NCBI GenBank assembly: GCA_039096225.1
Contig: JBBPEB010000021.1
Coordinates: forward strand, 496,001 to 560,000
Origin: Blastocystis sp. Blastoise
Taxonomy: Eukaryota > Protista > Bigyra: Opalinata
Reading direction: 5' to 3'
DNA: 64,000 nucleotides
This document shows, piece after piece, positions 30,260 through 51,779 of this stretch. The notes under the pieces were generated by a model. That model worked only from the letters and a program-made list of their open reading frames with translations. It searched no databases and was not told the origin of the DNA. The translations under genes and the position numbers were made by a program. How positions within the stretch are numbered: the stretch's first letter is position 1; each line of letters begins with the position of its first letter.

Positions 30260-30297
30260 TTCTAGAACATTCTAGAACATTCTCGAAACTTCTAGAA
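30260..30297. promoter_or_regulatory. Heat shock element array (8 nGAAn units)
   Basis: TTCtaGAAcaTTCtaGAAcaTTCtcGAAacTTCtaGAA, 45 bp upstream of ATG 30343. Confidence 0.8.
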
Positions 30298-30342
30298 TAA
30301 TAAATTGTATTATGCGTTTTTTATATTTTTATACTATATATT

Positions 30343-30510
30343 ATGGATTCTCCAAAGCAATTTGCTCCATATTATAAAGAAGGTACTTGGAAACCTTATG
30401 GAAATTTTGAAGTTGATGAATTAAGTGATAGTGATTCTGAAGTGGATACTATTCAAACTGAAAGTGAAGATGATTATGAAGATTATATAAAAAATTTTAT
30501 TGATTTTTAA
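30343..30510 (+). CDS. 55-aa acidic viral protein (below ORF-track cutoff)
   Basis: MDSPKQFAPYYKEGTWKPYGNFEVDELSDSDSEVDYIQTESEDDYEDYIKNFIDF. Preceded by an HSE array and followed by a ttgtttagtt 3' motif. Confidence 0.65.
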   Translation: MDSPKQFAPYYKEGTWKPYGNFEVDELSDSDSEVDTIQTESEDDYEDYIKNFIDF

Positions 30511-30611
30511 ATTAATTTTTATTAATAACAAAACAAATTGTTTAGTTTTTTGATAAAATATTAAAAAAAAAAAATAAATGTTTAAACAACAAATTTTATG
30601 AATAAATTTAA

Positions 30612-31733
30612 TTAATAAATCTTTTTTTTGCTTGCCTCCTTTAATTCTTTTGTCCATTTCTTTGGCGTTTTTGACGGTTTAATATCTGGTTTTGGTAATA
30701 AAGGTATATCCACTCTATTAACTTTATAATGATTATTTCCATTTTCAAAAAAATCTTTAGAATAGGCCAAATTCGTCATAGTATTAAACAATGGAAATGT
30801 AACTTCATCATTTTCAATATTTTGCAGATCATTTTGATAATTTTGTGTTAACTTATTTTGATATTTTTTAATTTCAGGATTTAGTTTTACTTTATTATGA
30901 ATACGAACATTATCAGTATTTGTTGTATGTGCAAAAGGGTAATATCTGTCTGCTAAAATATTTTTAGAATTTTTCGCATCTGGATCTTCCCACCATTGTA
31001 CGTCATAAGCATCATCTCTATTCTTTCTTGCTTGATTCGCCATTTCTCTTATTGCATATGTATCATCTTCTAGACTTTTTTTAAACCATTCTTTCATATT
31101 ATTAAATGTTTCTGCACCTTTATCAACTATTTTATTAACACCGTTAGTAATATTCTGAACACCACCAGTTAATCTATCAGCAACATGGTATACATCACCA
31201 ACGGCATTAAAAACATTAGAAAATAAATTACCACCTTTAGAATATAAATAACCTTCATGATCCTTTCTATTAAAATCTATTGCGTCTTCAATTGTGTTAA
31301 AATTTAATAATTTTGAATAAGTTTCATAACCATCAATATTATTACGTTTCATATAAGGTAAAACATAATCATGAGCATATATAAGTTTTCTTGTAAAATT
31401 CTTGGGAATTCTACCATCAGGTAACAGACCAGATCCTTCATCAATTGGTTCAGTCTCTTCGTATTCTTCGTATGAATTCTTTATAATATCGGGTCTATTT
31501 AATTTTAGAAATGAATAGAGTGGTTTCAGTGTAGCATTGTTAACCATATTACTTTCTATTCGCTTAACAGCAGCTAAAGAATTAGGAGCAATAGAATAAT
31601 TAATTGGATGACGTTCTTCTCCATCAGGAATAGATCCTGGAACAATATAATTTCGATATTCATGACCAGTAGCACGATGATTTACGCCTACTAATCCTTT
31701 ATTTGAAACATTTAAACGAGCACTTTGTATCAT
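30612..31733 (-). CDS. Viral hypothetical protein, 373 aa, probable virion/core protein
   Basis: Intact intronless ORF. EGSG-L and KGG-N candidate protease sites, the latter followed by amphipathic LFSNVFNAVGDVYHVADRL. Basic C-terminus. Confidence 0.8.
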   Translation of the reverse strand: MIQSARLNVSNKGLVGVNHRATGHEYRNYIVPGSIPDGEERHPINYSIAPNSLAAVKRIESNMVNNATLKPLYSFLKLNRPDIIKNSYEEYEETEPIDEGSGLLPDGRIPKNFTRKLIYAHDYVLPYMKRNNIDGYETYSKLLNFNTIEDAIDFNRKDHEGYLYSKGGNLFSNVFNAVGDVYHVADRLTGGVQNITNGVNKIVDKGAETFNNMKEWFKKSLEDDTYAIREMANQARKNRDDAYDVQWWEDPDAKNSKNILADRYYPFAHTTNTDNVRIHNKVKLNPEIKKYQNKLTQNYQNDLQNIENDEVTFPLFNTMTNLAYSKDFFENGNNHYKVNRVDIPLLPKPDIKPSKTPKKWTKELKEASKKKIY

Positions 31734-31845
31734 TTTATAAAATAATTATATTTTTTAAACAAAACAAAATAAAATATTGTATAATAAATTATTAATTACA
31801 AGATAATATATAAGAAATATAGATATATAATGTAAGGTATGCTAG

Positions 31846-32640
31846 TTATTTATTTTTTAAATAATCATCAAGAGGAATTGCTTCTCCATCTACATCAATA
31901 AATACTGTATTCTTAGTATATATTAATCTCTTATCACCAAAAGCATCACTATTAGTACAATTTAGTAATCCTGATTTAATATAATAATCGAATTCAAATT
32001 CACCATAAGACGCTTTCTTGTACTTATTTCTGTTTTTATCTTTGTATACTTTATCAGCTACCTTGAAATCTCTCACTGGTTGTGGGGGTGTTTCAGTTTC
32101 TTTTTCAGTTTCAGGTTTAGTTTCAGGCTTAGTTTCAGGCTCTTTAGATGGTTTCTTTTCGGGTTCAGGTTTAGGTTCTGGTTTGGGTTGTTCTTCAGTG
32201 AAATTAGAATTCATGGATTCTGGTTGTGGTTTCACTGTATAGTCTTCATTAGGATTTCTTACAGTATGAATAAGTTTTTCATATTGATAGTTATTAGGAT
32301 TACTAGCATCATACCATATCTTACTTGTAGTAGGAATACCATAATTCGTTTGCCATTGAGATAACATGGATGTATATCTATTGGTATCACCATTAGCTTT
32401 AGCTGAATTCATAGTAGCTATAAACATATCTTCAGGTGATTGACCATGATTTCTTAATGCTTGAACTGCCATTGAGCTATACATAGATCCTTGTGCATTA
32501 GGATCATGTGCTAATGGTTGTACAGGTTGTTCATCTTGACAAATATATGAATTGGGTAACCATGGATCCCAAGATTGTTTTTTCTGATTTCTTGATAAAA
32601 TATCATAGAGAGTTACACTATCTCCTAAATTACTTTGCAT
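31846..32640 (-). CDS. Viral hypothetical protein, 264 aa, with PEPK/ETKP linker
   Basis: Intact ORF with its own 3' motif at 31758-31767. No recognisable domain. Confidence 0.8.
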   Translation of the reverse strand: MQSNLGDSVTLYDILSRNQKKQSWDPWLPNSYICQDEQPVQPLAHDPNAQGSMYSSMAVQALRNHGQSPEDMFIATMNSAKANGDTNRYTSMLSQWQTNYGIPTTSKIWYDASNPNNYQYEKLIHTVRNPNEDYTVKPQPESMNSNFTEEQPKPEPKPEPEKKPSKEPETKPETKPETEKETETPPQPVRDFKVADKVYKDKNRNKYKKASYGEFEFDYYIKSGLLNCTNSDAFGDKRLIYTKNTVFIDVDGEAIPLDDYLKNK

Positions 32641-32717
32641 TATTTATTGTATTAATTTAAAAAATAATTATATAACAAAACAAATAATTAATTATGAAAT
32701 AATAAAAGTTAAAATAA

Positions 32718-33755
32718 TTAATTTAAATGGAATTTTTTTAAGAAGAATTGAACAAGATTAATAATTAAATTAGTAGTAGTATCAAAGGATGTAGAGTTGA
32801 CAAGAGCACCACCACAACGTTCAGCATTCTCTTTTGTAACACCACTTCCACCAGGATTTTTAAAGTAGTTATCAGCAGTTTCTTTACGTTTCTTATCATC
32901 ATCAGTAGTAATCATATTATAAGCGAAATCAATAGGGATACCAAGAGAAGGATAATAGTATTTTAATGCATTCACTACAATAGGAACAATCGTTTTAATA
33001 GTTTTAATAGCAGTATTAGCAATAATAGAATGCTTTTGTTTTGGATCCATAGGATATTCTTTATCGATAACGACATTAACAATATCACGTACAGACACAT
33101 GCTCATCATTTTTAGGTAATCGTTCTTTAATATCTTGTAATTTCTTCTTATTAGACTTTACATTACTAGAACGAATAGACTTCTTAGCAATAATTTTTAT
33201 TTGAGGAGTTACGAATTTACTTGTTTTCTTTTCTTTTTCTCGGTGACTCCCATGTTCTTTACGATGTTTCTGATGCCTTCTATGTATACCTTGACCAAAT
33301 ATATCATCATAATTTTCATCTTCAAGATTTGCATTATTATAATCTTTATCATCATCAGCCATCATTTTTCTTGTTATTCTCTTTGGTTGATAAGTATCAT
33401 CATCGTTATATAATTCATCATCTCTATTAGCATCTTCAATATGTTCTTCAAATTGTCTTTTCTTTTCTTCTTTTGCTTTTTCTTGACGTTTTTGTTCTTT
33501 ACGTTTCTGATAATAATTATATCCAGCAAATGCTCCTAATGTACCTAAAATAGGTAATGCAGTATAGACACCATTTTTAAAGTCAGCCCAATCAGCATCT
33601 CTAGTTTGTTGTCTAACAATTTCTTCAAAACCAGTTCCTCCATATCTTACATAACGTTTATGATAAAGATCACGTCTATTTGATTTTGGTGGTGATCCTC
33701 CAAATAATCGTGGATCACAATTTTGTTTTAAATATCTTTTTGTAATTGAACTCAT
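32718..33755 (-). CDS. Viral hypothetical protein, 345 aa, probable processed core protein
   Basis: Intact ORF with several GG/GxG sites (LFGGS, YGGTGF, FGQGI, PGGSGV, CGGAL), basic patches and a hydrophobic segment (ALPILGTLGAFAGY). Confidence 0.8.
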   Translation of the reverse strand: MSSITKRYLKQNCDPRLFGGSPPKSNRRDLYHKRYVRYGGTGFEEIVRQQTRDADWADFKNGVYTALPILGTLGAFAGYNYYQKRKEQKRQEKAKEEKKRQFEEHIEDANRDDELYNDDDTYQPKRITRKMMADDDKDYNNANLEDENYDDIFGQGIHRRHQKHRKEHGSHREKEKKTSKFVTPQIKIIAKKSIRSSNVKSNKKKLQDIKERLPKNDEHVSVRDIVNVVIDKEYPMDPKQKHSIIANTAIKTIKTIVPIVVNALKYYYPSLGIPIDFAYNMITTDDDKKRKETADNYFKNPGGSGVTKENAERCGGALVNSTSFDTTTNLIINLVQFFLKKFHLN

Positions 33756-33808
33756 AACAAAACAATAAAATAATTATGGTTTATATGACAAATTAAAATA
33801 TAAAAAAA

Positions 33809-34846
33809 TTAATGAAAAGATGGATAACCAGAATAATGTTTTTTATTTAAATAAGGATTAAAAATGCGTCGTTGACTATCTTGTATGATTTGATCTTGTA
33901 TGATTTGTAAGATGGATTCTTTAGGTTTATCTTTTTCATCTCGTTCAATACCTTTCAATGAGACTTCTTCTTCAACAGGTAAAAACTTCTTCATTTTCTT
34001 TTCATATGTAGATATATGTTCATTAGGACGTTTAATACCACTACCTGATACTTCACCTTGTTCTTCTCGTTTCTCTTTTTCACTATCTTCTTCTGTCCAT
34101 TTCCTTTTCTTTACCATCTTATATACATTCTGTTTACTACCACAATCAGGATTAGTCCATATTGTTAAATCATCACTACCTTGTTTTAACATAAAGAATT
34201 GATGTGGATCATTCATTAATTCTTCATCTGTAAGAATTTCATTTAGATTCGATGGCATAATCTTTAATTTATCTGGTAAGAATCCAGGATCACGTTTTAA
34301 GATTTGACTATTAATAAAGAAATGAGATACTTGACTTAATATAGATTGATTGGTAACATCTGTATGACTTTGAAGACATATAATAGCATTCTGTTTATAA
34401 TGACGACCTTTAGATAATATAGATACAATCAATTGTTTGGTTTGTCTAGATAATGGATAGATATCATCCAATACAATGAAATTATGTTCTGGTAATTTAT
34501 ATGTATTGACTAATTCATCAACAGTTTTAATCTTTTTAAATTTATCATCTACAGAATCATACCATTTATAATCAATTCCAGCATGTTCACAAATATCTTG
34601 AAAGGATGTATAACATTCATTCTTATTGGATGCATCAGGACAAATTACTGTGACTTGTTTATATTTATTTTTAAGATCCATAGAACATAAGAGGTTCACA
34701 GTTAAGAAAGATTTTCCTGAGAATGTTCTTGCAATAATCAATATGAATTTTGATTCATATGTTTTATGATGTGATTTTCCATATTTAAATTCTAAGACTC
34801 CACATCCTTTACGTGTTTCTTTTAATGGATTTATTTTATTCACCAT
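33809..34846 (-). CDS. A32/FtsK-HerA-type genome packaging ATPase
   Basis: Walker A ILIIARTFSGKS, Walker B FIVLDDI, GRH motif (SKGRHYKQN) and IICLQS. Confidence 0.9.
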   Translation of the reverse strand: MVNKINPLKETRKGCGVLEFKYGKSHHKTYESKFILIIARTFSGKSFLTVNLLCSMDLKNKYKQVTVICPDASNKNECYTSFQDICEHAGIDYKWYDSVDDKFKKIKTVDELVNTYKLPEHNFIVLDDIYPLSRQTKQLIVSILSKGRHYKQNAIICLQSHTDVTNQSILSQVSHFFINSQILKRDPGFLPDKLKIMPSNLNEILTDEELMNDPHQFFMLKQGSDDLTIWTNPDCGSKQNVYKMVKKRKWTEEDSEKEKREEQGEVSGSGIKRPNEHISTYEKKMKKFLPVEEEVSLKGIERDEKDKPKESILQIIQDQIIQDSQRRIFNPYLNKKHYSGYPSFH

Positions 34847-34915: not shown

Positions 34916-35587
34916 TTAAGATGCAGTAAAGTATATATAAAGATTTGTATTTGATAAATCAATTGGATTATTTAATTGATCATATACTTCCCATTGGATA
35001 TCTGTATATTTACCATCAATACATGGAATAGATAAATCACTGAGAGCAAATGTATTATCAAATCCTTGTTTAGCATATAAAGGAATAGAAATCAAATCAT
35101 TATCTTTATTAATAATATCACAATACACACGTAACATATAGATCTTATACCATGAAATATTATTGGATATATATTCATCAGTAAATACGATTGTATCACC
35201 CGGTGAAAAGTATGGTGATTTAATGCCTAAGTATTTAAATAGTCCAGAACTAAGACCACATTCAAACCAATGATTTGATTTAAAAGTTTTAGTTTCTTTA
35301 TTATAGCTGAAACCATAAGGTTCTCCTTCAACATAGGATTTCATTTTTTTTCCAATTTCATATAATTGATCTAAAAAATCTTCTAAAGTATAATTTCCAG
35401 CTGGAAATGTATATCTACCAGCATTATCATAAAACTGAATATTGAATTCAGGAATATTAATGATATCACTTGTATTCACTAATGTATTGATATGAGTAAT
35501 ATTTTTACCTACTAAATCCAAAGTATAATTGAATTGTTCATGACAGATTTGACTTGTAATTTTACTTAGATGAGATATTGATGTCAT
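34916..35587 (-). CDS. Minor capsid (penton-like) protein, 223 aa
   Basis: FPAGNYTLEDF, LFKYLG, LRVYCDII and IQWEVYDQLNNPIDL fit the Polinton/PLV penton pattern. Located between the ATPase and MCP. Confidence 0.7.
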   Translation of the reverse strand: MTSISHLSKITSQICHEQFNYTLDLVGKNITHINTLVNTSDIINIPEFNIQFYDNAGRYTFPAGNYTLEDFLDQLYEIGKKMKSYVEGEPYGFSYNKETKTFKSNHWFECGLSSGLFKYLGIKSPYFSPGDTIVFTDEYISNNISWYKIYMLRVYCDIINKDNDLISIPLYAKQGFDNTFALSDLSIPCIDGKYTDIQWEVYDQLNNPIDLSNTNLYIYFTAS

Positions 35588-35683: not shown

Positions 35684-36907
35684 TTAATTGGTTGCACCAT
35701 CTCTAACAAATTTAACAAATATAAAATGAGCATATAAAGTATAAGTACCACTAGTAATATTTGCACCATTATATTCAGTTAATAAGGAGATATTAACTTC
35801 ACAACCACTACGAGTATTGACATCAACAACACTTGAAATAGGGAATATATAAATAGGTTGTTCATACCACTTTTCACCATTCAAAGGAGATTGAGGATGA
35901 CTATTACATCTCCAAGTATTATAAAGCATAGCATTAGGAATAATTTGTGATGGATTCGTTGTTTTATATGTAGTAGGGAAATCCGTCTTAGGTAAGATAT
36001 TTTGACCACCAATTTGGAATTGACACATCTTCAATAATTCAGTCTTAATAGGAATCATACTCTTCTCTTGAGTTGTAAAATATAGCATACAGTAATCAGG
36101 TACGAAAACAACACTTCTATTGGATAAGAATTGTTGTGGAGTTGGTTTACCTGCTGTTGAGAATGTTTCTGAATAAACAGGTGTAGTAAATGCAGATATT
36201 TGACAATTATTAGGAATACATTTAATCAAAGCACGTGGATCATTACCAAAATTAATATCATAAATTTGTTGAAGATGAATATAAACACGATCAAATGTTA
36301 ATGCAGTGATTTTAGTGGTTCCAGTAAATAGATTCTTTAAATAATTTGTAACGAATTGCATCTTCAAAGATTTTACTTTAATAGCACAATCAAATGTACC
36401 AAGACCAGTAATAAGAGATAAAGGAATAATAACTTGAGCTTTAGTAGAACTTTGCATTCCAGCAATACTACTTAAGGTTGTATTATATAAGCATTCTGTC
36501 ATACTATACATAGATTTATCAATTTCATCTTTACTTAATTCTTTAATAGTAACAAATTTTCTTGCTTTACTGGATTCAATAGAAGATTCAGAATAATTAA
36601 TAAGAATATCTTGACCCGTAGGAGATACAAACGTAAGATCTGTAGTAATTTTATCAATAATACTATAGATATTAGAATGTTGTACAACAGAACTAGTTGT
36701 AGCTGCATTTGTTGTAATATTGAAATTCAGTTCTAAGAATGAATTACTGAAATCAATAAAAGGACTATCAACTGAATTATATAAGAATTCAAATGGATAA
36801 GGTTGATTTAATAAATCTTGACTAGTAGAAACTAGAATAGGAATTTGTACAGGTTTAATAGTTTGATTTGCCTTTGAAGGTAAGAATTGTCTTGGGAATC
36901 CTTCCAT
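35684..36907 (-). CDS. Major capsid protein (double jelly-roll) paralog 1, 407 aa
   Basis: Beta-rich. N-terminal FIDFSNSFLELNFNI..NIYSIIDKI, then IPL and VPDYCMLYF..FQIGGQNILP, matching the DJR MCP pattern. Gene context supports it. Confidence 0.75.
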   Translation of the reverse strand: MEGFPRQFLPSKANQTIKPVQIPILVSTSQDLLNQPYPFEFLYNSVDSPFIDFSNSFLELNFNITTNAATTSSVVQHSNIYSIIDKITTDLTFVSPTGQDILINYSESSIESSKARKFVTIKELSKDEIDKSMYSMTECLYNTTLSSIAGMQSSTKAQVIIPLSLITGLGTFDCAIKVKSLKMQFVTNYLKNLFTGTTKITALTFDRVYIHLQQIYDINFGNDPRALIKCIPNNCQISAFTTPVYSETFSTAGKPTPQQFLSNRSVVFVPDYCMLYFTTQEKSMIPIKTELLKMCQFQIGGQNILPKTDFPTTYKTTNPSQIIPNAMLYNTWRCNSHPQSPLNGEKWYEQPIYIFPISSVVDVNTRSGCEVNISLLTEYNGANITSGTYTLYAHFIFVKFVRDGATN

Positions 36908-37080
36908 TTTAATAATTATTGTTTATGTATTTTTTAACAAAATAAAAATAAAATAATAATAATATTTTATAATTATAAAATTATTTGAAATTCATAACAA
37001 AACAAATGATTGGAATATAGAATAGAATAGAATTAATTAAACAAGTTAACGTTAAGAATAGTAAGTAAGAAATATTAAAT

Positions 37081-38553
37081 TTAAATATCACGTACACTAC
37101 GTACAGCAATCATATGTAATGTATAAGGATGCTTCTCATTTAGTTCAGTATTAATATGTTTATAAATACCAGCATGAGAAGCAACGGCATAAGAAGCACC
37201 AGTGTCAGGTGTCCATATTTTAGTAGTTTCATTATATGTACATGTATATCCATCAGGAACAGTAGATGAATCAGCATGACCATATTCAATATCATGGACA
37301 TCTAGATTACAATCAAAATTCATTTCTATACCACTATCTGATTGGATATTCATTAATGCTTTAGTTGGAATAATATAAATAGGATGTTTAATCCATTCAT
37401 CATATTTAAGAATAGTTTCAGGATTTGAATTATCAGCCCATAAACAATATAGATTTTTATTAGGACAAGATAAACTAGCAGTTTCTTCATTATTGAAGAC
37501 ATGACCTTTAGTAGTAAGATTATGATAATACATTTGAGTAGGGAATTCAGTTTGAGGGAACATTTGAACATCACCAATCAAACAACTTTGATATTTAGGC
37601 CATACAGATGGACTTGCTACATTACTAATAGTTGTTGAACTATACCCATTTGTAAACCAGTATAATATATATTCAGGTATAAATGGTAAAGCTCTATTGA
37701 TATTGAAATGATCACTAGTTATTCTTGTATTTTGATAATCGACTTGAATACATGTAGGTATAGTTTTATATAATTCATTCGTTTGGAATTGAATATCTTT
37801 ATAAGTCATTAAATTCATAGTAGCTGATTCCAATTCAAATGTCTTAAACCATTTTTCATCAGTTAGATGTAACCATTGTGTTGATAATTTAGCACCACCA
37901 TTCTTGAAATAAATACTCATATTATTATCAATTAAGGATTCAATTGTACTCGTTCTAAATAGCATATTGAAATGTTTAGTTAATATTAAAGAATCTCCAT
38001 CAACACCTAAACCACTAATGAGATATAAAGGAATAGCAATATGAATAGATTCATTTGGATGTGCACGTATATAACGAATAGAATTCAATTCATAAGTATC
38101 TGCAGATAAATCTTCACCATACATAGATTTTTCTAAATCATTCTTACTGATATCTTTTAATAAAATCATTTTACGACCACGTGAAGCATGTGTACAGTTT
38201 TCTTCATATTTCAAAGCACGATCAGATCCATCAGGTAAAGTATAAACCATTTCAACATCAGTGGAATCAATAATAGAATAAATATTAGCTTTTTGAACTA
38301 ATTGATCCAAGAAATATTGACATAATTGATCATAGGTGAAACTAACAGAAGTACCTGTTTCATCTAAATAAACAGAAACTGGTCCAGCTTTATCTGTGAC
38401 AGTTGCCTTGACAGTAAGATCCAAATAGGATTGATTGAAATTGATATAAGTGTTATCCACATTAGTCCAATGATATTGAAAGATATAAGGACTTGATAGA
38501 ATATCAGTATCACTTTGAATAGGAATATTATCTTTAATTCTTAAGATTCTCAT
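37081..38553 (-). CDS. Major capsid protein paralog 2, 490 aa
   Basis: Colinear similarity to 35684-36907 (NIYSIID, KSMY, IPLxLIxGLG, PxTxFPT, PIYIxP), with insertions. Confidence 0.75.
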   Translation of the reverse strand: MRILRIKDNIPIQSDTDILSSPYIFQYHWTNVDNTYINFNQSYLDLTVKATVTDKAGPVSVYLDETGTSVSFTYDQLCQYFLDQLVQKANIYSIIDSTDVEMVYTLPDGSDRALKYEENCTHASRGRKMILLKDISKNDLEKSMYGEDLSADTYELNSIRYIRAHPNESIHIAIPLYLISGLGVDGDSLILTKHFNMLFRTSTIESLIDNNMSIYFKNGGAKLSTQWLHLTDEKWFKTFELESATMNLMTYKDIQFQTNELYKTIPTCIQVDYQNTRITSDHFNINRALPFIPEYILYWFTNGYSSTTISNVASPSVWPKYQSCLIGDVQMFPQTEFPTQMYYHNLTTKGHVFNNEETASLSCPNKNLYCLWADNSNPETILKYDEWIKHPIYIIPTKALMNIQSDSGIEMNFDCNLDVHDIEYGHADSSTVPDGYTCTYNETTKIWTPDTGASYAVASHAGIYKHINTELNEKHPYTLHMIAVRSVRDI

Positions 38554-41635: not shown

Positions 41636-43432
41636 ATGCAATCAACAGGTTATTCAGATAAAGATTGTGAAGAATTCTTTACAAATTGTATAGATCAATT
41701 ATTACATTGGAAGAAAATACAATTATCAACAAGTATAAATTGGAAGAAATGGATCAAAACAATATGTAAGAAATTTCGTAATGAAGAACGAATTCAAATA
41801 GATGATATGGAAGAACCATTCTTTTGTGTAGAAGTGTTAACAGATCCATTTCAATTTCAAAATGTTATGCAACATACACAAACAGAAGCTCCTGGACAAC
41901 AAGGTGGATTATCCAATACTACAGTAGCTAATTATATGCAAATGATTACATATATAATGAAGAATATATCTATTTGTACAGATGATGAAGATATCATTAA
42001 TTATAAAGCATTTACTCCACAAAATATAAAGAAATGGGAACATTTATGGGGTTCTTTACAAATTGATGCTACTTATTCAAGACATTATGAAATCACTCAG
42101 AAAATTATTAATTGTGAAGCTGATTGGGGAGAAATCATTAATATCACCAAAAAGAATTATTTAGAGAATCCTAATGATTTATATTATGTGAATAGTTATT
42201 TATTAGTTTTAACTTATGATACATTATGTGCTCGTAATGATTATAATGATTGTGTAATCTATACTCGTGGTCAACAAATTCCTTTATCCTTAAGAAGAAC
42301 AACCAATTATATTGATTTAAATACTTTGACTATTCATGTGAATGATACAAAGAATCGATTTGAAATTGGTAAGAATGAATATCCTACTTATCAATATTTA
42401 TCAGAAGAATATTTGAATGTCTTAGCTAGATCCTTACGTTTATTTCCAAGACATTATTTATTTGTTACTGAGAATGGTGGTAAAGTACGTGATTTGAAAT
42501 TTGGTGATGAATATATAAAACCCCATTTAGGCTGGATTTATAAAACACAACAGAATAATTCTTTAATTAATGGTTGTGATATTATAAGACATTTATTTGC
42601 TCAATATTATTATAGATTATCAAGAGAAGCACAATTCCAACATAATGATTCAGAACACGAATCTAAAGGTGTAGAACTCTTTGAAAATTCGATTATGAAG
42701 ATGTTACATAGTCAATCAACACATATGGAAAATTATATATCTCCTTATTTATCTTCTCATTCAACTAAATTGCAAGATTTAGATAATAAAACAAGAACAT
42801 TTCATATTGATATGAATAATATTACTTATACAAGAGAAATTAATCAATTGAATAAATTATTATTTTTATGTAAACGATTTAATGATCGTATAGAACAATA
42901 TGAAGAAGACTATGAAGATGTATTTGGTAAAGAGAATTTCAATATGAAATCAGAATCCATATTAAGTAGTCTAGAACAATATTCATCAGATAATGATACT
43001 ATAATGATTACATTAAGATATTATAAAGATCTATTAAAGCATCATTATCCAGATAAAACAGATTTAGAAAATGAATTACCTGTAGGATGTTCATTAGAAT
43101 CTGAAGAAGTTCCAGAGAATTCTAGAGATCGTTATAATCGTTTTATACGTAATAAACAATTATTACCTGATCATTTACATAATAATACAACGGATTCAGA
43201 ATTAACGAATACTCAAGCATCTCTTATGCAACAGAATACTCAAGATGAAAACTCTACACCTATAGTTATGAATAATTCAGATACTTATGCATTACGTAGT
43301 CTTTCTACTATGCCTCCTTTAGAACCTATTCATCGTGGTCATGGTTTATTGAAAAAACATAAAAGTAATGCATTCTTTAAAGTCAAAGTCCCTAAAAAAC
43401 ATTTTCATGGAATACAATTTAAATTTTATTAA
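41636..43432 (+). CDS. Tyrosine recombinase / integrase
   Basis: Catalytic residues in order: R (LCARND), K (NDTKN), xxxR-H (DIIRHLFA), H (MLHS) and Y (THMENY). N-terminal core-binding-like helix (LSNTTVANY). Confidence 0.8.
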   Translation: MQSTGYSDKDCEEFFTNCIDQLLHWKKIQLSTSINWKKWIKTICKKFRNEERIQIDDMEEPFFCVEVLTDPFQFQNVMQHTQTEAPGQQGGLSNTTVANYMQMITYIMKNISICTDDEDIINYKAFTPQNIKKWEHLWGSLQIDATYSRHYEITQKIINCEADWGEIINITKKNYLENPNDLYYVNSYLLVLTYDTLCARNDYNDCVIYTRGQQIPLSLRRTTNYIDLNTLTIHVNDTKNRFEIGKNEYPTYQYLSEEYLNVLARSLRLFPRHYLFVTENGGKVRDLKFGDEYIKPHLGWIYKTQQNNSLINGCDIIRHLFAQYYYRLSREAQFQHNDSEHESKGVELFENSIMKMLHSQSTHMENYISPYLSSHSTKLQDLDNKTRTFHIDMNNITYTREINQLNKLLFLCKRFNDRIEQYEEDYEDVFGKENFNMKSESILSSLEQYSSDNDTIMITLRYYKDLLKHHYPDKTDLENELPVGCSLESEEVPENSRDRYNRFIRNKQLLPDHLHNNTTDSELTNTQASLMQQNTQDENSTPIVMNNSDTYALRSLSTMPPLEPIHRGHGLLKKHKSNAFFKVKVPKKHFHGIQFKFY

Positions 43433-43552: not shown

Positions 43553-46480
43553 CTATAAACAATTTCTTCTTTTTTTAGATAAACAATTGGATAAACAGAA
43601 TAAATCTGTATCTACACATTCATTATAAGTATTATCAATCATTAAACCACAAATACCAATAGCATTCCCTCCCTTATAAAAATTTGAAGTATGTTTTCTA
43701 TGAATATTCACAATATCTATAGAATTAAATGTATCTTTACTACTTAAACAACCAAATAAAGCATTTGTAAATTTATCTAAATCTTTCTTAATCGTAAATT
43801 GATTATTATTATTCACTTTCTTATAACTATTAAAAATATCTTCAATAGTAACTACATTCAAATAATAAGGATCTATAGTAATATGGTTATCAACAAAAGA
43901 TTTCAAATCATATCCTTCTGTACTACGATCAAAGAATCGTTTCTTACATTCACTTATATGATATTCATTATCTAATTCATGCATATCTAATTGCATACTA
44001 GAATAGAAATAATTACTTACTAGATAACTAAAGATAATTGAACGATTCTGATAGAATTTATCAGATAAAGTATAATCCATTTCATAATGATTTGGTTTCA
44101 ATCTCTTTTCTACTGTCTGTTTACGTTTCGGTAAATTATGATCTACATAATCTTCATATAAATTAGCATTACCAGGAGGGAAATAACGACAACATGATGG
44201 TAAGAAACAAACTCTTCTTTCAATAGGACCAGCATTCACAGCAGTAGGTTGGATATTACTTGTCATAAATAAAGTACCTGTGAAATGAACTTTTGTAAAT
44301 ATATTACTGAATAATTTACGAGCACTAGCACCTTCTTTCTTTTCTGCTATTTCTTTAAAGACTTTAGAAGAGAATGGATTAAATGTTTTCTTTCTACCAG
44401 TAACATCTTCTTCTATTAATTCATTCATATAATACATTGTTTTATTAGACATATCTACAATCTTAGGAGCTATAGATGTTTCTTCTAAATTATCTGGATT
44501 TACTATAATACATTGATTACTACCTACAATACGAGAAATTAAATCAGTTGTTATTGTTTTACCATTACTACCTGTACTACCATATAATATATAAGAAACT
44601 GTTTTCTGAGTATTGACATAGAAAGCAGTGGTTAGGATACGTAACATAATACTTTCATATTTCTTATCGAATTCACAATATCTTGCAATATGTTGTTCAA
44701 ATAATTGGATAATATCTTTCTGTTCATTATTAATATTCCAACTTACATTAAATTCAGTATCAATTAATAAATCTTCAAATACCATATCTTCTTTATGATA
44801 TGGTTGGATATAATATTGTCTAGGATCTTCTTCTGTAGATTCTTTTGGATATAAATAACCAAGTTGTGTATAGATAACACGTTCTTTATGAACCATATAC
44901 GTATCTAAATATTCTTTATAAGATTTACCATAAGTCTTCAAATAACGATTCAACCATTCTTTATAATGATATTCATTAGTAACAGAAGCAGACATTATTT
45001 TATCAACTATTTTTTGATGTTGTTCATTCTCTTTGGAATATAATCTTGATAATTTGAATTTCTCTACAATCGATTTCATAAATGTAGTTATTTTGGTTTC
45101 AAAAAAATTAATATCATAATTATTCTTACAACGTCTTAAGATATTATATTCATCAAATGTATATAAGATAAAATTATCTTTATCTAATATAATAGAAACA
45201 ATTTCATTAAATTCTAATAATTGAAATAACATAACTAATGTTTGTGAATCTACAAGATTAAAGGATTGAATACATTCTAAAATAGACATAAATATGAAAT
45301 CATTATCATCATCTTTATTAAATAATTTATTATCCATTAATATCTTCAAAATATAATTATTCGATAAATGAGTAGGATCAACTTGTATATGATTCCATGT
45401 AGATTCAATTACATCATCACTTCGATCATGACCATAACGTAATGAATAATTTTTAAATAATTCTAATCCTCTTGTTGTATTACAAATCTGTTTTGCTGCA
45501 CAACATAATTTATACCAAGTATTATGGGATTCAAAATAATTCATATCTTCAATAGAACCAATCAATAATAAATATCGTTCTAATAAAGCTTCTTTAGATG
45601 CTGTAGTATCCAATATAGTATCTGTAGAAATCAACATAGGAATATCTTTAATATCTTGTATAGAACATAATATAGTACGTGAACAATTATTTAATCTTGC
45701 ATAATAACGTTTATAACGTGAATATTGTTTTAATTTATAAAAGATAATAGGATTAATAATATCACTTATAATATCATCTTCATTCTTATAATTCAATAAT
45801 GTTTTGAAATAATAATGTTCATCGATTTCATCATCTATTTTCTTCCATGTTTTATTGGTATATTCTTCGTATAATTTATAAGTAGATGGAGAATTATCTT
45901 TACTACAACCAAGAAACATACAACCATTATTCTTTCTTGGTTTACCAATAACATTATAATCAATGAATTCTTTTATATCTAAATTATTCATTTTACATAA
46001 ATCAACCAATTTGGTATTCAGAATCATACTATTATATAAGAAAAATAAATAATCACCATTTACAAACCAATTTGTATATATGTGAATTCCCCATGAATAA
46101 TGTATTTCATTATGAACTGTCTTCTTATTCACTTCTTTCTTTGTATACAGAAGCGAAATAAATTCTTGATTATAATAATGAATACAATGATTACATATTT
46201 CTTCAATAAATTCATGAATAAATGAATCTGTTAGAAAAGAAAAATCATTTGATATTTGGTGATAATCTAAATCAAACCATAATCTTCTATAATTAGTTGA
46301 TGTATTACAAGGAGTACAATCAATATAATGTAGTAATTCTTTTGGATTTTGATAATTAGTAAATAGACTTTTATAAAATGGTAATGGATTTGGTATAATA
46401 ATTTCACTATGATTATCTTTTGAATTATCATGATTAAAGGAACCAAAAGTATAAACAAAATGAATTTGTGAATTTTCCAT
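43553..46480 (-). CDS. AEP primase + PriCT-2 + D5-like SF3 helicase, 975 aa from the first ATG
   Basis: AEP motifs LWFDLD, GIHIY and FID. PriCT-2-like HNTWYKL..GLELFKNYS..TWNHI. SF3 GSTGSNGKT, YYMNE, LFMTSN and IERR. The track start 46528 is TTG; the first ATG is 46480. Confidence 0.9.
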   Translation of the reverse strand: MENSQIHFVYTFGSFNHDNSKDNHSEIIIPNPLPFYKSLFTNYQNPKELLHYIDCTPCNTSTNYRRLWFDLDYHQISNDFSFLTDSFIHEFIEEICNHCIHYYNQEFISLLYTKKEVNKKTVHNEIHYSWGIHIYTNWFVNGDYLFFLYNSMILNTKLVDLCKMNNLDIKEFIDYNVIGKPRKNNGCMFLGCSKDNSPSTYKLYEEYTNKTWKKIDDEIDEHYYFKTLLNYKNEDDIISDIINPIIFYKLKQYSRYKRYYARLNNCSRTILCSIQDIKDIPMLISTDTILDTTASKEALLERYLLLIGSIEDMNYFESHNTWYKLCCAAKQICNTTRGLELFKNYSLRYGHDRSDDVIESTWNHIQVDPTHLSNNYILKILMDNKLFNKDDDNDFIFMSILECIQSFNLVDSQTLVMLFQLLEFNEIVSIILDKDNFILYTFDEYNILRRCKNNYDINFFETKITTFMKSIVEKFKLSRLYSKENEQHQKIVDKIMSASVTNEYHYKEWLNRYLKTYGKSYKEYLDTYMVHKERVIYTQLGYLYPKESTEEDPRQYYIQPYHKEDMVFEDLLIDTEFNVSWNINNEQKDIIQLFEQHIARYCEFDKKYESIMLRILTTAFYVNTQKTVSYILYGSTGSNGKTITTDLISRIVGSNQCIIVNPDNLEETSIAPKIVDMSNKTMYYMNELIEEDVTGRKKTFNPFSSKVFKEIAEKKEGASARKLFSNIFTKVHFTGTLFMTSNIQPTAVNAGPIERRVCFLPSCCRYFPPGNANLYEDYVDHNLPKRKQTVEKRLKPNHYEMDYTLSDKFYQNRSIIFSYLVSNYFYSSMQLDMHELDNEYHISECKKRFFDRSTEGYDLKSFVDNHITIDPYYLNVVTIEDIFNSYKKVNNNNQFTIKKDLDKFTNALFGCLSSKDTFNSIDIVNIHRKHTSNFYKGGNAIGICGLMIDNTYNECVDTDLFCLSNCLSKKRRNCL

Positions 46481-46566: not shown

Positions 46567-46604
46567 GAAGCTTCTAGAACATTCTAGAACATTCTAGAAC
46601 ATTC
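46567..46604. promoter_or_regulatory. Heat shock element array (8 units), proximal to the primase-helicase
   Basis: GAAgcTTCtaGAAcaTTCtaGAAcaTTCtaGAAcaTTC, plus an extra TTCtaGAA at 46549-46556. Confidence 0.8.
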
Positions 46605-46638
46605 TATAATAGTAAATATTACTTTATATTTTTAAATG

Positions 46639-46686
46639 TTCTAGAACCTTCTAGAACCTTCTAGAACCTTCTAGAACCTTCTAGAA
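46639..46686. promoter_or_regulatory. Heat shock element array (10 units), distal to the primase-helicase
   Basis: (TTCtaGAAcc)4 followed by TTCtaGAA. Confidence 0.8.
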
Positions 46687-46796: not shown

Positions 46797-47420
46797 TTAA
46801 ATTTCAATTGGTTCTTGACTATTAATATATGTACATGAATGAGGCCATCCATTCTTATCATATAAAATACCATCCCAGAAATACATTTGTTTTGAAGGAT
46901 CTCTTTTAATCTTGTTAATACTCTTAGCATGAACAACTTCATAAGAATAAACTTTACCTTTTTCATCATAGAGAAATCCATCTTCCATATGGAATTTCAT
47001 AATATCAAAATCATCATCTTGAGAATTCGAATGTTCTTTAGAATCTTCAGAACATAAAATAGTAGTTCTATCACTTTCTAAAAGATCTTCAGTATTGATA
47101 ATATCTTGAATATCTTGTTCTTCATTAAGTTGTTGAGTATAAATATCAGCAGCGAATTCTTCATAATCTTCAAGACCTTTAATAACCGCGTTTATACGTT
47201 TTAAAGCTGATCTATAGTTTTCGACTTCGAAAGAAGCAAGACGTTCTTTAGATTTTGCAATACCCAATAGATTCTTTTCTCTATTCAATTGAGACTGATG
47301 TAAATCAATATCACGAAGAACATTCTTATGAACTTCAACAGCCTTCTTAGAATTCTTTAGAAGTTCCATACGAACAGTTTGAAGACATTTACGGGAATCA
47401 GCAGAAAGATTAAATTGCAT
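46797..47420 (-). CDS. Viral hypothetical coiled-coil protein, 207 aa from the first ATG
   Basis: Long heptad region, acidic middle and small beta-rich C-terminus. 3' motif at 46728-46737. Confidence 0.75.
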   Translation of the reverse strand: MQFNLSADSRKCLQTVRMELLKNSKKAVEVHKNVLRDIDLHQSQLNREKNLLGIAKSKERLASFEVENYRSALKRINAVIKGLEDYEEFAADIYTQQLNEEQDIQDIINTEDLLESDRTTILCSEDSKEHSNSQDDDFDIMKFHMEDGFLYDEKGKVYSYEVVHAKSINKIKRDPSKQMYFWDGILYDKNGWPHSCTYINSQEPIEI

Positions 47421-47531
47421 TATAATCGCGAATATCGTTACAGAGAGAAAATTTGTATTTATCAAAATGAAATAAATAATACATTTAAATGGAATATTAA
47501 ATATTCTAGGAGACAGTGTAGAATCTCTATG

Positions 47532-47705
47532 GAATGTTCTAGAAGGTTCATTTGATTGGCTAATTTTGTCGACTTAGCATTTAGTATTTGTGTTTCGATG
47601 ACGAACATAGTCGGCATCTGTAATCTGATTGGATAAAAAAATTAGTAAAACACAATTAGACGATGACGACGATGTGTCATACGAAATAAGTTATTTTATT
47701 GGCTT
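47532..47705. promoter_or_regulatory. Bidirectional promoter with an HSE (4 units) and three reverse CCAAT boxes
   Basis: GAAtgTTCtaGAAggTTC at 47532-47549. ATTGG at ~47555, ~47628 and ~47698, between divergent ATGs 47420 and 47819. Confidence 0.65.
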
Positions 47706-47818
47706 ATTTTCCAGCTGGAAGCAATAGGCTTTTGTTAGCAACTGAAATGAAGAACTGTACACTAAAAATAGTATATTTAATATATTGTATAAAAATACTT
47801 TTGAAGGTTTAAATAATC

Positions 47819-48346
47819 ATGGAAATTCCTGATAGTCTTTCTGCCAGTTTATCCCCTTTCGGTCAAGCCATGATATCCCCCTTGTTGAATCCATTTGAAA
47901 ATAGTGTTTCTGCAAATCCTATGGCTTTACCCAATGATAATGATTTCTGTTTTAATTCGCGTGACGAAATCATGTTTGAAGATCCACCTCAAGAAATTCA
48001 TCCAATCAATGATGTTTACGTATCTAAAAATCCAGATAGATATCATTCGGTTAACAATCAACCAATACAATTTCAAGATCAAGTAAATACAAATCCTAAT
48101 AAGCAAGCATTATTATTTACAAATGAGGAGTTAACAAATATATCCAGTCAATTCGAATCTTTATTTCAAACTATGGAAACGGCTGATAATATATTAAATA
48201 GTATTTATTGTACTGTTGATCATTTAAAAACAAAGATTGAAAGTCAGAAACAAGATTTAAAACAGATTCATGATGATTCTAAAGAAATTGTTTCATTATT
48301 ATCCGAATATTCTATTCCTTCTATGTCTGAAATATTTGATCATTAA
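47819..48346 (+). CDS. Viral hypothetical protein, 175 aa (acidic/disordered N-terminus, C-terminal coiled coil)
   Basis: Intact ORF followed by TTGTTTTGTT at 48369-48378. Confidence 0.8.
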   Translation: MEIPDSLSASLSPFGQAMISPLLNPFENSVSANPMALPNDNDFCFNSRDEIMFEDPPQEIHPINDVYVSKNPDRYHSVNNQPIQFQDQVNTNPNKQALLFTNEELTNISSQFESLFQTMETADNILNSIYCTVDHLKTKIESQKQDLKQIHDDSKEIVSLLSEYSIPSMSEIFDH

Positions 48347-48436
48347 TTTATTTATTTAATTAATTATTTTGTTTTGTTTATTTTTTTTTTAAATTAATTA
48401 CACAAAGTTTAAATGGAGAATAGAATAGTTTCAAAT

Positions 48437-48544
48437 AGAATTCTTGAATGGTCTAATGGATCTATTAAAGAAATATGTAACCACAGTATCATGGTTCGAT
48501 TCCGTTAAAATGTTTCCATTAGATTATTCAAGTGTTCTTTTTTT
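48437..48544 (+). ncRNA. Putative RNA polymerase III small RNA, VA-RNA/EBER-like architecture
   Basis: A box TGGTCTAATGG 48449-48459, B box GGTTCGATTCC 48493-48503, terminal stem 48437-48460/48515-48538 with G-U pairs, T7 terminator 48538-48544. Confidence 0.72.
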
Positions 48545-48590
48545 CTAGAACCTTCTCGAACATTCTAGAACCTTCTCGAACCTTCTCGAA
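48543..48590. promoter_or_regulatory. Heat shock element array (10 units) upstream of the SSB gene
   Basis: TTCtaGAAccTTCtcGAAcaTTCtaGAAccTTCtcGAAccTTCtcGAA, ending 76 bp before ATG 48667. Confidence 0.8.
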
Positions 48591-48666
48591 CATTGATTCA
48601 TTTGAAAAGAATATCTAAATATATTAGTATTAAAATACTTATATTTTTACTAAATACTTAACTAAA

Positions 48667-49260
48667 ATGTCTTCAACTGAATTTAAGAAACCTGCTATTC
48701 TTGATACTTCTAACTTTAATTTACAATGGGATGACACCAAAGAAAATGCTGTTCTTTTAAATAATAATCATCGTGTATGTATTTCTACTGATGCTACACC
48801 ATGTTTATTTGGTTATATTGTTACACGTGATAAATGGACTTTATTAACAATTGAAGATGATAATCAAGTATTCTTAACTGCTTATAAAGAACTTTATCGT
48901 AAATTATGTGAATTATGTCCTGATGGTGATATTGTTAATTTTGTACGTATGGATAATGGTAAATATAAGATTACAATTAAAGTACCTATTAATGCATCGA
49001 AGAATGTTACTATTGATATTACTGATAAAAGAGATAAGAAGATTAATATCGGTAAAGATCCTAAGTTAACTTACGAAGAAATACGTGAAAAGTATATTCC
49101 ACCAAATACGTTATGTAAAGTATTATTTACAATACATGGTATTCATCGTTATAATAACAAGTATTATATTGGTTTATATGCTCGTTCTATTAAAGTCATC
49201 GATAAATCTACGAAGAATACTAATAGTAATGATACTATTATTGATTTAACTAATTTATAA
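48667..49260 (+). CDS. Probable OB-fold single-stranded DNA-binding protein
   Basis: C-terminal IPPNTLCKVLFTIHGIHRYNNKYYIGLYARSIKV plus a short acidic tail resembles T7 gp2.5/NCLDV-type SSBs. Replication-gene context. Confidence 0.6.
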   Translation: MSSTEFKKPAILDTSNFNLQWDDTKENAVLLNNNHRVCISTDATPCLFGYIVTRDKWTLLTIEDDNQVFLTAYKELYRKLCELCPDGDIVNFVRMDNGKYKITIKVPINASKNVTIDITDKRDKKINIGKDPKLTYEEIREKYIPPNTLCKVLFTIHGIHRYNNKYYIGLYARSIKVIDKSTKNTNSNDTIIDLTNL

Positions 49261-49335
49261 ATTTTTAATGTTAAATTTATTTTTTATTAATATATTTGTT
49301 TTGTTTATAAATAATTTTATAATTGAAATAAAAAA

Positions 49336-50964
49336 ATGCAAAGTTGTATATTAGGAATGCCAAGTCCTGGTACTTTTGGTATGAATTTAATTTCAACTGG
49401 AAAAGAATATAGGCGATATAATACACAACCATTACATAAAATGGATCAATATAATCCAATATTTCATGAAATAGGTCCAAATTCATCTATGCCTGTGTCT
49501 ACTTTAGAAAGTAAAGAAATACATGATGGTAAAGAAGATGATTATGTAGATCGTTCTAAAACATTTGGTAAAGATGCTGTTCCACAAGGAAATGGTGCTT
49601 TAATTCGTGCTAGAGCAGCAGGTAAAGGTGTAATGAAAGCAGCTGGTCCAGAAGAAGATAAAATAGATGGTGAAGATCGTCAATATAAAGTATTAAATCC
49701 TTGTAAACCAAGACGTAAATCTGGTAGAGGAATTATTCCAAATAAATCAGAAATCAATAAATTAGAGAATAATCAAGGTTCTGGTATTGGTGATGCAATT
49801 AAAAATAAAGTAAAAGATATGTATCAACGAAATGTATTAGATATAAGAGATGCTATTGTAGATAAAAAAGCTAATAGAAAAGCTCGTGATGCATTAGCTA
49901 TTTTAGCTCAATATGTTGGTGATGGTCATCATGATCTTGATGATGAATTCAAAAGATTCTATGAACATAAAATTAAACGTGGTGGAAAGATTCCTATATC
50001 TGTTGCTTCAGCAATTATGAATGCAATTAAAAATAAGAAAATGATTAAGAATCCAAAATTAAGAAGAATGTTAAGACCTTCAATTATACCAAAATATATA
50101 GATTTAGATTCAGCTCAAAGTGGTGATGGTATATTAAGAGTTAAAAGAGGTGGTGGATTCTGGGATGGAGTTATGAATTATGCACCAGCTCTTTTAGGTG
50201 TAGTTGATAAAGGTATGGATTCTTTTGCTAAAGGTAGAAAAGCTTATTATGATACACATTTGGCACAACAGTCAAGTGAATTAAATGATATGGAATTTGA
50301 AATGGAAAAATTAAAACGTCAACAAGCATTAAATGAAATGAAAAAACAAATAGGTTCAGGAAATACTATAAATAAGATGTTTGAAGGATATTATGATGTA
50401 GCTGATGAAATGCAAGATGCTCTTGATGAAGATGATAGATTACATCCACAACCCGTTGTTCAACCTCCACCACCTCCACAACAACAAGTTGTTAGACCTC
50501 CTCAACCTCAACCTCCTCAACCTTATAAGCCAATGTCTCGTGATGAACAAAGTTATTATTATAAGATTTATGGTTTCCCTCAAAATGATAAGGAGAAAGT
50601 CGATAGAAAATGGAAAGAAGATGAAAGGGATAAACGAATAGCTGCAAGAAGAGCTAAACGTAGAGGTTATGGTGGTCGAGTTAAATTAAGTAAAGAAGAA
50701 TTCTTAGAACGAATGAGAAGAGGAAAAGAAGCTAAAAAGAAAAAAGGTGGTGATTTACCTCCATTAGTAACAGCTTATACAGATTTTGTAATACCTGCAC
50801 AAGTAGAACAAAGGAAACGTAAAGTAGTTAAAAATGATTTAAAACAATTACAAATTATAAAACAGAAAATGGATAATAATGAAATATTAGATAGAGGTGA
50901 GCAAATGTTTTGGAAAGAAAAGAAGTATATGTTATCAAAAAACTCAGGGGAGGGGATCTGGTAA
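49336..50964 (+). CDS. Basic core polyprotein precursor, 542 aa, with many GxG/GG cleavage sites
   Basis: At least 10 motifs (QGNGA, AGKGV, SGRGI, QGSGI, RGGK, SGDGI, RGGGF, IGSGN, YGGR, KGGD, SGEGI). K/R-rich with a P/Q-rich linker. Confidence 0.8.
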   Translation: MQSCILGMPSPGTFGMNLISTGKEYRRYNTQPLHKMDQYNPIFHEIGPNSSMPVSTLESKEIHDGKEDDYVDRSKTFGKDAVPQGNGALIRARAAGKGVMKAAGPEEDKIDGEDRQYKVLNPCKPRRKSGRGIIPNKSEINKLENNQGSGIGDAIKNKVKDMYQRNVLDIRDAIVDKKANRKARDALAILAQYVGDGHHDLDDEFKRFYEHKIKRGGKIPISVASAIMNAIKNKKMIKNPKLRRMLRPSIIPKYIDLDSAQSGDGILRVKRGGGFWDGVMNYAPALLGVVDKGMDSFAKGRKAYYDTHLAQQSSELNDMEFEMEKLKRQQALNEMKKQIGSGNTINKMFEGYYDVADEMQDALDEDDRLHPQPVVQPPPPPQQQVVRPPQPQPPQPYKPMSRDEQSYYYKIYGFPQNDKEKVDRKWKEDERDKRIAARRAKRRGYGGRVKLSKEEFLERMRRGKEAKKKKGGDLPPLVTAYTDFVIPAQVEQRKRKVVKNDLKQLQIIKQKMDNNEILDRGEQMFWKEKKYMLSKNSGEGIW

Positions 50965-51058
50965 AGAGTAAAGATGAAAAACTTATTCAAAATTCAATGA
51001 ATTGTGATAATCCTATTATATCTGATAAAACTCGTCATGTTACTCCTAGATCCCCTGA
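50937..51058 (+). promoter_or_regulatory. -1 programmed ribosomal frameshift signal
   Basis: In-phase slippery heptamer A AAA AAC 50937-50943, a 7-nt spacer, then aggggatct 50951-50959 complementary to agatcccct 51048-51056. The downstream ORF is in the -1 frame. Confidence 0.72.
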
Positions 51059-51530
51059 TAATTTCAAACAAACTCTATCTCAATATTGTAATATACCAAA
51101 TTCTCTAATATCTCAATTATATAATTATGCTTATTTAAATAAACCTACCTCATCTGTTGCTTGTGATCGTGCTGAAAATGTTATGAAACAATTAAATAAA
51201 ACAAATTCTCAATCTTATAATTATTATAATAGTTATGATGATTTTGAACAAAATATAGATCAAGATCAAACTAAATTTAATATGATCTTCCATGAAAGTC
51301 CTAGTGATCCTTATAATGGTCATTTTGAAGCTGTTATTTATAATGGTAATAAAAATATAGAACACTATTCATCATTAGGAAATAAACCTACTTTTTCAAA
51401 ATCATTTATTCAAAATCATAATATTCAATATAATCCTATTCAACACCAAAAAACTACAAGTAATGCAAATGGTTGCTTTTATTATTCTTTACTTTATTTA
51501 CTTTCTAATGGAAATCTTATGCCTTGTTAA
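50943..51530 (+). CDS. Adenain/Ulp1-like (clan CE) maturation cysteine protease, probably made as a frameshift fusion
   Basis: NGHFEAV (His), IEHYSSLG (the usual FDS/FEP-x-G strand), QHQ (oxyanion Gln) and NGCFYYSLLYL (Cys). The track start 50910 is TTG; the first ATG is 50997. Confidence 0.75.
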   Translation, partial: LRGGDLVKSKDEKLIQNSMNCDNPIISDKTRHVTPRSPDNFKQTLSQYCNIPNSLISQLYNYAYLNKPTSSVACDRAENVMKQLNKTNSQSYNYYNSYDDFEQNIDQDQTKFNMIFHESPSDPYNGHFEAVIYNGNKNIEHYSSLGNKPTFSKSFIQNHNIQYNPIQHQKTTSNANGCFYYSLLYLLSNGNLMPC

Positions 51531-51534
51531 AACA

Positions 51535-51552
51535 TTCTAGAATATTCTAGAA
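51535..51552. promoter_or_regulatory. Heat shock element (4 units)
   Basis: TTCtaGAAtaTTCtaGAA upstream of ATG 51617. Confidence 0.7.
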
Positions 51553-51616
51553 TCTTTAATTTATTATATTAATATTTTGTATAATTAATTTGTTTTGTTT
51601 ATTATTTAATACTATA

Positions 51617-51772
51617 ATGACAAAGAAACGATTTGGCAATTACTACTTAGATCGTAGTGCAGAAATTTTAGAGAATGTAAATGAAATACTGTCAGTTATT
51701 GAAATTGTTCTTATTATTATATATATTTTACTTTACTTTTATATGTCCAAGAAACGTTCTAGAACATTCTAG
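51617..51772 (+). CDS. 51-aa single-pass membrane protein
   Basis: MTKKRFGNYYLDRSAEILENVNE-ILSVIEIVLIIIYILLYFYM-SKKRSRTF. HSE upstream and 3' motif at 51843-51852. Confidence 0.55.
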   Translation: MTKKRFGNYYLDRSAEILENVNEILSVIEIVLIIIYILLYFYMSKKRSRTF

Positions 51773-51779
51773 AACATTC
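51757..51779. promoter_or_regulatory. Heat shock element (5 units)
   Basis: TTCtaGAAcaTTCtaGAAcaTTC upstream of ATG 51875. Confidence 0.7.

Follow-up and report, generated by a model that had tools for sequence, protein, structure and literature searches.

A 64,000-nucleotide stretch of the Blastocystis sp. Blastoise genome (contig JBBPEB010000021.1, positions 496,001 to 560,000; hereafter the window) carries a Polinton-like virus (PLV) provirus of about 22–25 kb, in which seven perfect arrays of alternating GAA and TTC triplets precede replication genes and small open reading frames (ORFs). With a probability of roughly 55%, we read these arrays as binding sites of the host heat shock factor (HSF), at promoters that would drive the replication module of the provirus under stress. 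A direct scan of the window recovered the seven runs in 5-bp phase, at the positions and with the unit numbers (8, 8, 10, 4, 10, 4 and 5) given by an earlier note on this DNA:

30260–30297: nGAAn array, 8 units, 45 nt upstream of the ATG of a 55-aa ORF
46567–46604: nGAAn array, 8 units, 86 nt upstream of the primase-helicase ATG
46639–46686: nGAAn array, 10 units, 158 nt upstream of the primase-helicase ATG
47532–47549: nGAAn array, 4 units, in a divergent promoter region, 111 and 269 nt from the ATGs of the divergent pair
48543–48590: nGAAn array, 10 units, 76 nt upstream of the ATG of a gene resembling single-stranded DNA-binding proteins (SSB)
51535–51552: nGAAn array, 4 units, 64 nt from a tiny-ORF ATG and 4 nt past the protease stop; begins a duplicated cassette of about 85 nt
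51757–51779: nGAAn array, 5 units, 95 nt from a tiny-ORF ATG; overlaps the 3' end of a 51-aa ORF (51617–51772)

Spacer bases vary across all seven arrays and GAA/TTC never does, just as the note had held. The distance of about 45–200 bp that it gave describes most cases (45–158 nt), one gene of the divergent pair lying further away, at 269 nt. Among the downstream genes that it named, the primase-helicase, the SSB-like gene and the divergent pair stand; the three tiny ORFs are candidate genes. Its statement that arrays are confined to the element holds for the longer ones: outside them, the window has three perfect 3-unit matches (5063, 23202 and 29185), about the chance number, and allowing one mismatch in four units adds a single site, a degenerate 5-unit nGAAn run at 29175.

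The expectation by chance was obtained from 900 Markov simulations of the 24.3-kb element (orders 1, 2 and 4; 300 each). Simulated arrays of at least 4 units averaged 0.007–0.027 per run; the longest had 5 units and appeared once, and 6 units were reached in none of the 900 runs, versus seven observed arrays, four of them with 8–10 units. All seven lie clear of the element's 16 ORFs of at least 140 aa, which together with the 55-aa ORF make up 87% of its span. Four successive ORFs among these 16, the two recognised replication genes included, are preceded by an array at no more than 300 nt. Arrays are found at 2 of 2 recognised replication genes versus 0 of 6 recognised or likely virion and packaging genes (Fisher p 0.036, the genes being clustered and not independent). 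In agreement with the note, the window scan placed no array before the capsid, penton candidate, ATPase or core-like genes; nor did it place one upstream of the protease or recombinase genes.

HSF recognises inverted nGAAn repeats, three units being enough (PMC9157408, PMC12366260; here and below, papers are cited for the parts of their text available to us). Each array has 4–10 such units, hence at least three contiguous ones, and qualifies as a potential heat shock element (HSE). The unit occupied in vivo in Drosophila is AGAAN (PMC2936546). In the provirus, 41 of the 49 array units read AGAAn, the fifth base being free, and A precedes GAA in the element at a background of about 43%, arrays included; the preference is that of Drosophila and may differ for a Blastocystis HSF. 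Prokaryotes, which lack HSF, served as the control: a scan of 596 Gb of their genomes for 8-unit arrays gave 40 loci. There, 91 of 408 pentamers begin with A, a second array occurs within 1.5 kb at 2 of 40 loci, and 80% AGAAn is reached by 2 of 40 arrays, versus 5 of 7 here.

The same control bears on a neutral origin, in which the arrays would have grown in AT-rich intergenic sequence as a palindromic decamer slipped and was locally duplicated. Control arrays with a 10-bp period are of similar order in viral contigs, the duplicated cassette of about 85 nt joins the last two arrays (51535 and 51757), and the host DNA is full of simple repeats. Yet the spacers change while GAA/TTC stays constant, host microsatellites are almost absent from the element, and seven arrays in one 22-kb element contrast with the 40 single-locus 8-unit cases of the prokaryotic DNA, two with a second nearby. 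We regard a neutral origin as very unlikely.

Several observations nonetheless weigh against HSF sites. The pattern occurs at those 40 loci in organisms that have no HSF. One 10-bp unit underlies all seven arrays, which are probably products of duplication, and the 49 units therefore do not count as independent observations of AGAAn. The recombinase promoter has no array, no clear TATA box was found at a fixed distance, and in Drosophila cells fewer than 15% of good HSE motifs are HSF-bound (PMC2936546). In IMG/VR, 6-unit arrays occur at 68 and 29 loci in two phases (46 distinct contexts), many of them inside phage ORFs; since same-pattern arrays also lie inside phage genes, the pattern alone is no proof of HSF. 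Two control patterns in viral contigs gave 35 and 25 loci versus 68, and the array pattern is therefore not strongly favoured among viruses overall.

On the host side, the earlier note had called for confirmation that an HSF exists. HSF-type DNA-binding proteins (IPR000232) number 2–3 in each of 8 of 8 Blastocystis strains (PMC12129017 Table S5), which documents HSF at the level of the genus. Signals of host transcription also accompany the viral genes. A GU-rich motif follows 15 of the 19 ORFs, always in sense orientation, where 1.1 occurrences would be expected; the remaining 40 kb has 3:

30527–51852, sense: TGTTTTGTT, 15 copies, 23–105 nt past stop codons; likely a 3'-end signal

TGTTTTGTT resembles the downstream gene element of Blastocystis, whose core is TGTTGTT and which was not found enriched in AT-rich Blastocystis strains (PMC12129017). 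Possible readings are a 3' signal specific to the virus and a trace of an earlier host lineage. CCAAT-box-like words lie at 47553, 47626 and 47696, within 150 nt of the 4-unit array, out of 22 matches window-wide. Together, these words and the 3' motif point to host transcription, and control by HSF is therefore plausible.

The arrays could instead be read by a viral protein (the primase-helicase, the recombinase or a small repressor) that binds the 10-bp palindrome as iterons or operators, the likeness to HSEs being convergent. The two arrays before the primase-helicase (46567–46604 and 46639–46686) flank a 34-nt AT-rich spacer and form a long inverted repeat, an origin-like hairpin with z −9.3. 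This layout of AT-rich stretch plus initiator gene fits the pair at 46567–46686 but not the other five arrays. Any pair of HSE runs would fold in this way, their unit being a palindrome, and single-strand folding is not common to the arrays (z −9.3, −3.6 and +0.4 in three regions, the last being the SSB array). Iterons cluster at one origin, whereas the arrays stand at six separate gene starts across 21 kb, away from the candidate element ends. One array does lie upstream of the basic 44-aa ORF, as autoregulation requires; however, domain searches found no sequence-specific DNA-binding domain in the array-associated ORFs. Among array-containing ORFs in IMG/VR, 5 of 13 scanned carry Lin1244_N, which we take to be the N-terminal domain of phage replication initiators and which suggests iterons; yet the AGAAn bias is absent from prokaryotic and phage arrays. 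We consider binding by a viral protein distinctly unlikely.

If the arrays are HSF sites, heat or protein-folding stress would activate the host HSF, whose trimers would load cooperatively on the arrays of 8–10 units and recruit host RNA polymerase II. The primase-helicase, the SSB and two uncharacterised proteins would then be expressed from the array-fronted promoters, and the first two would work with host DNA polymerase to amplify the viral DNA. The array-less recombinase and virion genes would follow indirectly, through a further step that the two uncharacterised proteins may control.

HSF could also drive a strong early promoter of virus that has just entered or is active already, whether through its basal activity or once activated by this infection or by that of a second virus, rather than act as a stress switch for silent integrated copies. 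The array-less recombinase gene speaks for this, as do basal transcription by yeast Hsf1 (PMC10551698) and the activation of HSF1 by several viruses on infection (PMC9157408, PMC12366260); reactivation of PLVs and provirophages is triggered by giant viruses, that of mavirus being described as independent of host stress responses (bioRxiv 10.1101/2025.10.09.676808). Against it, runs of 8–10 contiguous units are longer than stable binding requires, three units being enough for it, the presence of some 20 copies whose proteins are mostly full-length suggests that the integrated state is regulated, and the sole known giant-virus group of the gut shows no gene flux with Blastocystis (bioRxiv 10.1101/2024.03.23.586382). 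We find such an early promoter fairly unlikely and favour stress control of the replication module. [quoted passage not shown] The 'analogue of SOS prophage induction' of the earlier note goes beyond the evidence, because the recombinase gene has no array.

Mobile DNA driven by HSF is already established. The Caenorhabditis Helitrons Helitron1_CE and Helitron7_CB carry 14 and 85 HSEs upstream of Rep-Helicase and are heat-induced (PMC6927752). They resemble the provirus in having tandem overlapping HSEs before their own replication gene; they differ in being rolling-circle transposons devoid of virion genes, and their induction was seen by chromatin immunoprecipitation and RNA sequencing, whereas that of the provirus is proposed from sequence. 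ONSEN, whose heat response element is bound by host HSF and which yields extrachromosomal DNA after heat (PMC3907296), is likewise mobile DNA under host HSF, but it is a long terminal repeat (LTR) retroelement with one promoter, whereas the provirus is a DNA virus and has its arrays spread over six gene starts. [quoted passage not shown]

Closer in kind are the endogenous PLVs of Tetraselmis, with a D5 helicase-primase and a tyrosine recombinase (bioRxiv 10.1101/2025.10.09.676808), as well as mavirus and the endogenous mavirus-like elements (EMALEs): integrated small double-stranded DNA viruses with a similar replication-integration pair, able to reactivate. Reactivation of Tetraselmis PLVs and mavirus is by giant viruses, and that of EMALEs goes via giant-virus late promoter motifs, whereas the promoter words of the provirus are of host type. 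Blastocystis hominis MELD virus, a midsize double-stranded DNA virus with PolB and a retroviral-type integrase (PMC8502044), also comes from Blastocystis data and has divergent virion genes; the provirus has a primase–SF3 helicase and a likely tyrosine recombinase instead. Literature searches turned up no account of HSEs from PLVs or virophages, as the earlier note had supposed, subscription papers and bioRxiv supplements being largely outside their reach; the available parts of bioRxiv 10.64898/2026.10.09.758095 and 10.1101/2024.03.23.586382 and of PMC8947103, PMC5447177 and PMC3681718 have nothing on HSEs.

In the sources available to us, the described cases of PLV or virophage reactivation need a giant-virus helper. 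Here, the sequence points to one definite trigger on the host side, and the host is a protist that can be cultured and has about 20 near-identical copies. If the proposal is true, Blastocystis, which the text available to us calls the most common eukaryotic microbe of the human gut, would gain another DNA virus of a distinct kind, whose relatives in public assemblies are 43–63% identical.

The element stands out between about 30.3 and 52.0 kb by its closely packed ORFs without interruptions; microsatellites, abundant in its flanks, are nearly absent from it. Its genes are as follows:

30343–30510, plus strand: acidic 55-aa ORF, candidate gene; one-mismatch 3' motif downstream
30612–33755, minus strand: three ORFs (373, 264 and 345 aa), function not assigned; no array
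33809–34846, minus strand: packaging ATPase-like P-loop protein, 345 aa (phrog_2666, E 1e-10); no array
34916–35587, minus strand: penton candidate, from its position and a motif that we take to be penton-like, with no database match; no array
35684–36907, minus strand: major capsid protein, 407 aa, predicted double jelly-roll fold; no array
37081–38553, minus strand: second capsid-protein paralogue, 490 aa (probability 99.96, 31% identity to its 407-aa neighbour); no array
38629–41064, plus strand: likely minor virion protein, 811 aa, with presumed penton-like motifs; no array
41134–41556, plus strand: 140-aa ORF, function not assigned; no array
41636–43432, plus strand: likely tyrosine recombinase, 598 aa (Atlas 0.90–0.92 and motifs); no array
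43553–46480, minus strand: primase fused to an SF3 helicase, 975 aa (phrog_1156, E 2e-9); arrays upstream
46797–47420, minus strand: 207-aa ORF, function not assigned, downstream of the 4-unit array
47819–48346, plus strand: 175-aa ORF with an acidic N-terminal part and a coiled-coil-like C-terminal part
48667–49260, plus strand: likely SSB, 197 aa (0.95 to Nucleocytoviricota DUF5871/DUF2738 clusters)
49336–50964, plus strand: basic, core-like ORF, 542 aa; no array
50997–51530, plus strand: likely cysteine protease, from His/Gln/Cys motifs found by eye; no upstream array
51617–51772, plus strand: 51-aa ORF with a hydrophobic stretch, candidate gene; exact 3' motif downstream
51875–52009, plus strand: basic 44-aa ORF, candidate gene; array upstream

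The 407-aa protein is a double jelly-roll capsid protein in its predicted fold (pLDDT 75, pTM 0.74). The top PDB match of the model is the Sputnik major capsid protein (E 6e-12), and it also matches those of PBCV-1, mavirus and PRD1; among viral folds it comes closest to a protein of 'MELD virus sp.' (TM 0.64, 14% identity). The adjacent paralogue pair covers 35684–38553, and the 490-aa type has relatives of its own (P0175–P0177). The ATPase-like protein has Walker and GRH motifs and matches FtsK at E 0.05; Pox_A32 was not matched. Relatives of the primase show weak DUF5906 and PriCT_2 matches, and the C-terminal end of the primase-helicase differs here, with 975 aa versus 1000 aa in most copies. 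The SSB label presumes that DUF2738 has such a role; the fold model of this protein has a pLDDT of 35. The protease label rests on motifs, database searches of 50997–51530 having returned no match. The 175-aa ORF had no relatives beyond its own element copies, and Pfam gave no support for an HSBP1-like protein. Searches likewise did not support the 44-aa ORF as an HMG-box or ribbon-helix-helix protein.

No DNA or RNA polymerase was recognised among the element ORFs, nor did any match protein-primed PolB (pPolB) or RVE integrase, the strict marks of a Polinton/Maverick. In PLVs, a helicase-type replication gene and a tyrosine recombinase replace pPolB and RVE integrase (bioRxiv 10.64898/2026.06.19.733378), and the predicted genes of the element are of these two kinds; it is also integrated, multi-copy and within about 15–30 kb. 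The assignment as a Polinton-like provirus, already made in the earlier note, is upheld by the capsid fold and the capsid paralogue, the primase-helicase, the likely recombinase, the SSB-like protein and the copy number. No terminal inverted repeat was found and the element ends were not located; a 15-bp direct repeat at 29919/53733 was rejected as marking them, 17 of 300 simulations having given at least 15 bp. Near the left side of the provirus, a GC-rich branched hairpin at 29395–29510 (z −4.3) is a candidate terminal or origin structure. No Rfam matches were obtained in the window from 26000 to 58000.

The closest named proteins are hypothetical proteins of 'Blastocystis sp. Blastoise'. 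Clusters hold 19 members for the primase, 21 for the recombinase and 16 for the 175-aa ORF, on contigs of 0.5–2.2 Mb; the members listed are 94–100% identical to the present copy, giving about 20 near-identical copies in which the proteins are mostly full-length. Three further capsid clusters bear the same organism name and are 48–51% identical. Relatives in public assemblies, on contigs of up to 27 kb, reach 55–63% identity for the capsid and 43–45% for the primase; no related loci were confirmed in viral contigs, metagenome contigs, prokaryotic genomes or phages. A term search of the main text of PMC12129017 returned no description of the present virus.

The 46 IMG/VR contexts include four CRESS-type viruses (L053, L068, L089 and L099) and one likely PLV (L077). 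The arrays of L053 and L068 stand about 100 nt upstream of Rep, with a TATA word in between, and CRESS loci are three of the four most AGAAn-rich contexts. From their sequence, the arrays of L053, L068 and L089 are candidate heat-shock promoters in single-stranded DNA viruses, CRESS iterons being the alternative. Protein matches to CRESS viruses or PLVs occur in 5 of 46 array contexts versus 0 of 49 control contexts (p 0.024, post hoc and with queries from the positive set), and in a same-phase comparison in 2 of 33 versus 0 of 49; the wider pattern across these viruses is weak. A viral-contig scan for array plus TATA, set aside, returned 4 loci, every one within a single long phage-like ORF; it was ill-sized, because the known CRESS cases were missed.

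At individual loci from this set (L053:1484-1610, L053:4545-4671, L068:998-1136 and L089:315-453), a TATA word and then a start codon come after an array of 5–6 units. L077:4001-4249 (IMGVR_UViG_3300042563_003165) has a 6-unit array, then a TATA word and a 59-aa HMG-box-like ORF, a likeness with E 0.13 at best. Three phage Lin1244_N genes (L010:3339-4532, L031:3398-4438 and L063:3482-4534) contain internal 6–7-unit arrays, likely iterons.

The host DNA flanking the provirus is rich in simple repeats. To its right, a Helitron Rep-helicase occupies 57934–63889 (Pfam PIF1 and Helitron_like_N); no nGAAn array of at least 3 units was found upstream of it. To its left, degenerate repeats of about 490 bp at 26600–28730 finish with GC-rich sequence and CTAG, directly followed by a (TAA)130 tract; this resembles the signature of a Helitron 3' end. 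A satellite at 54800–56330 has a conserved core of about 35 bp, with variable TA tracts between its copies.

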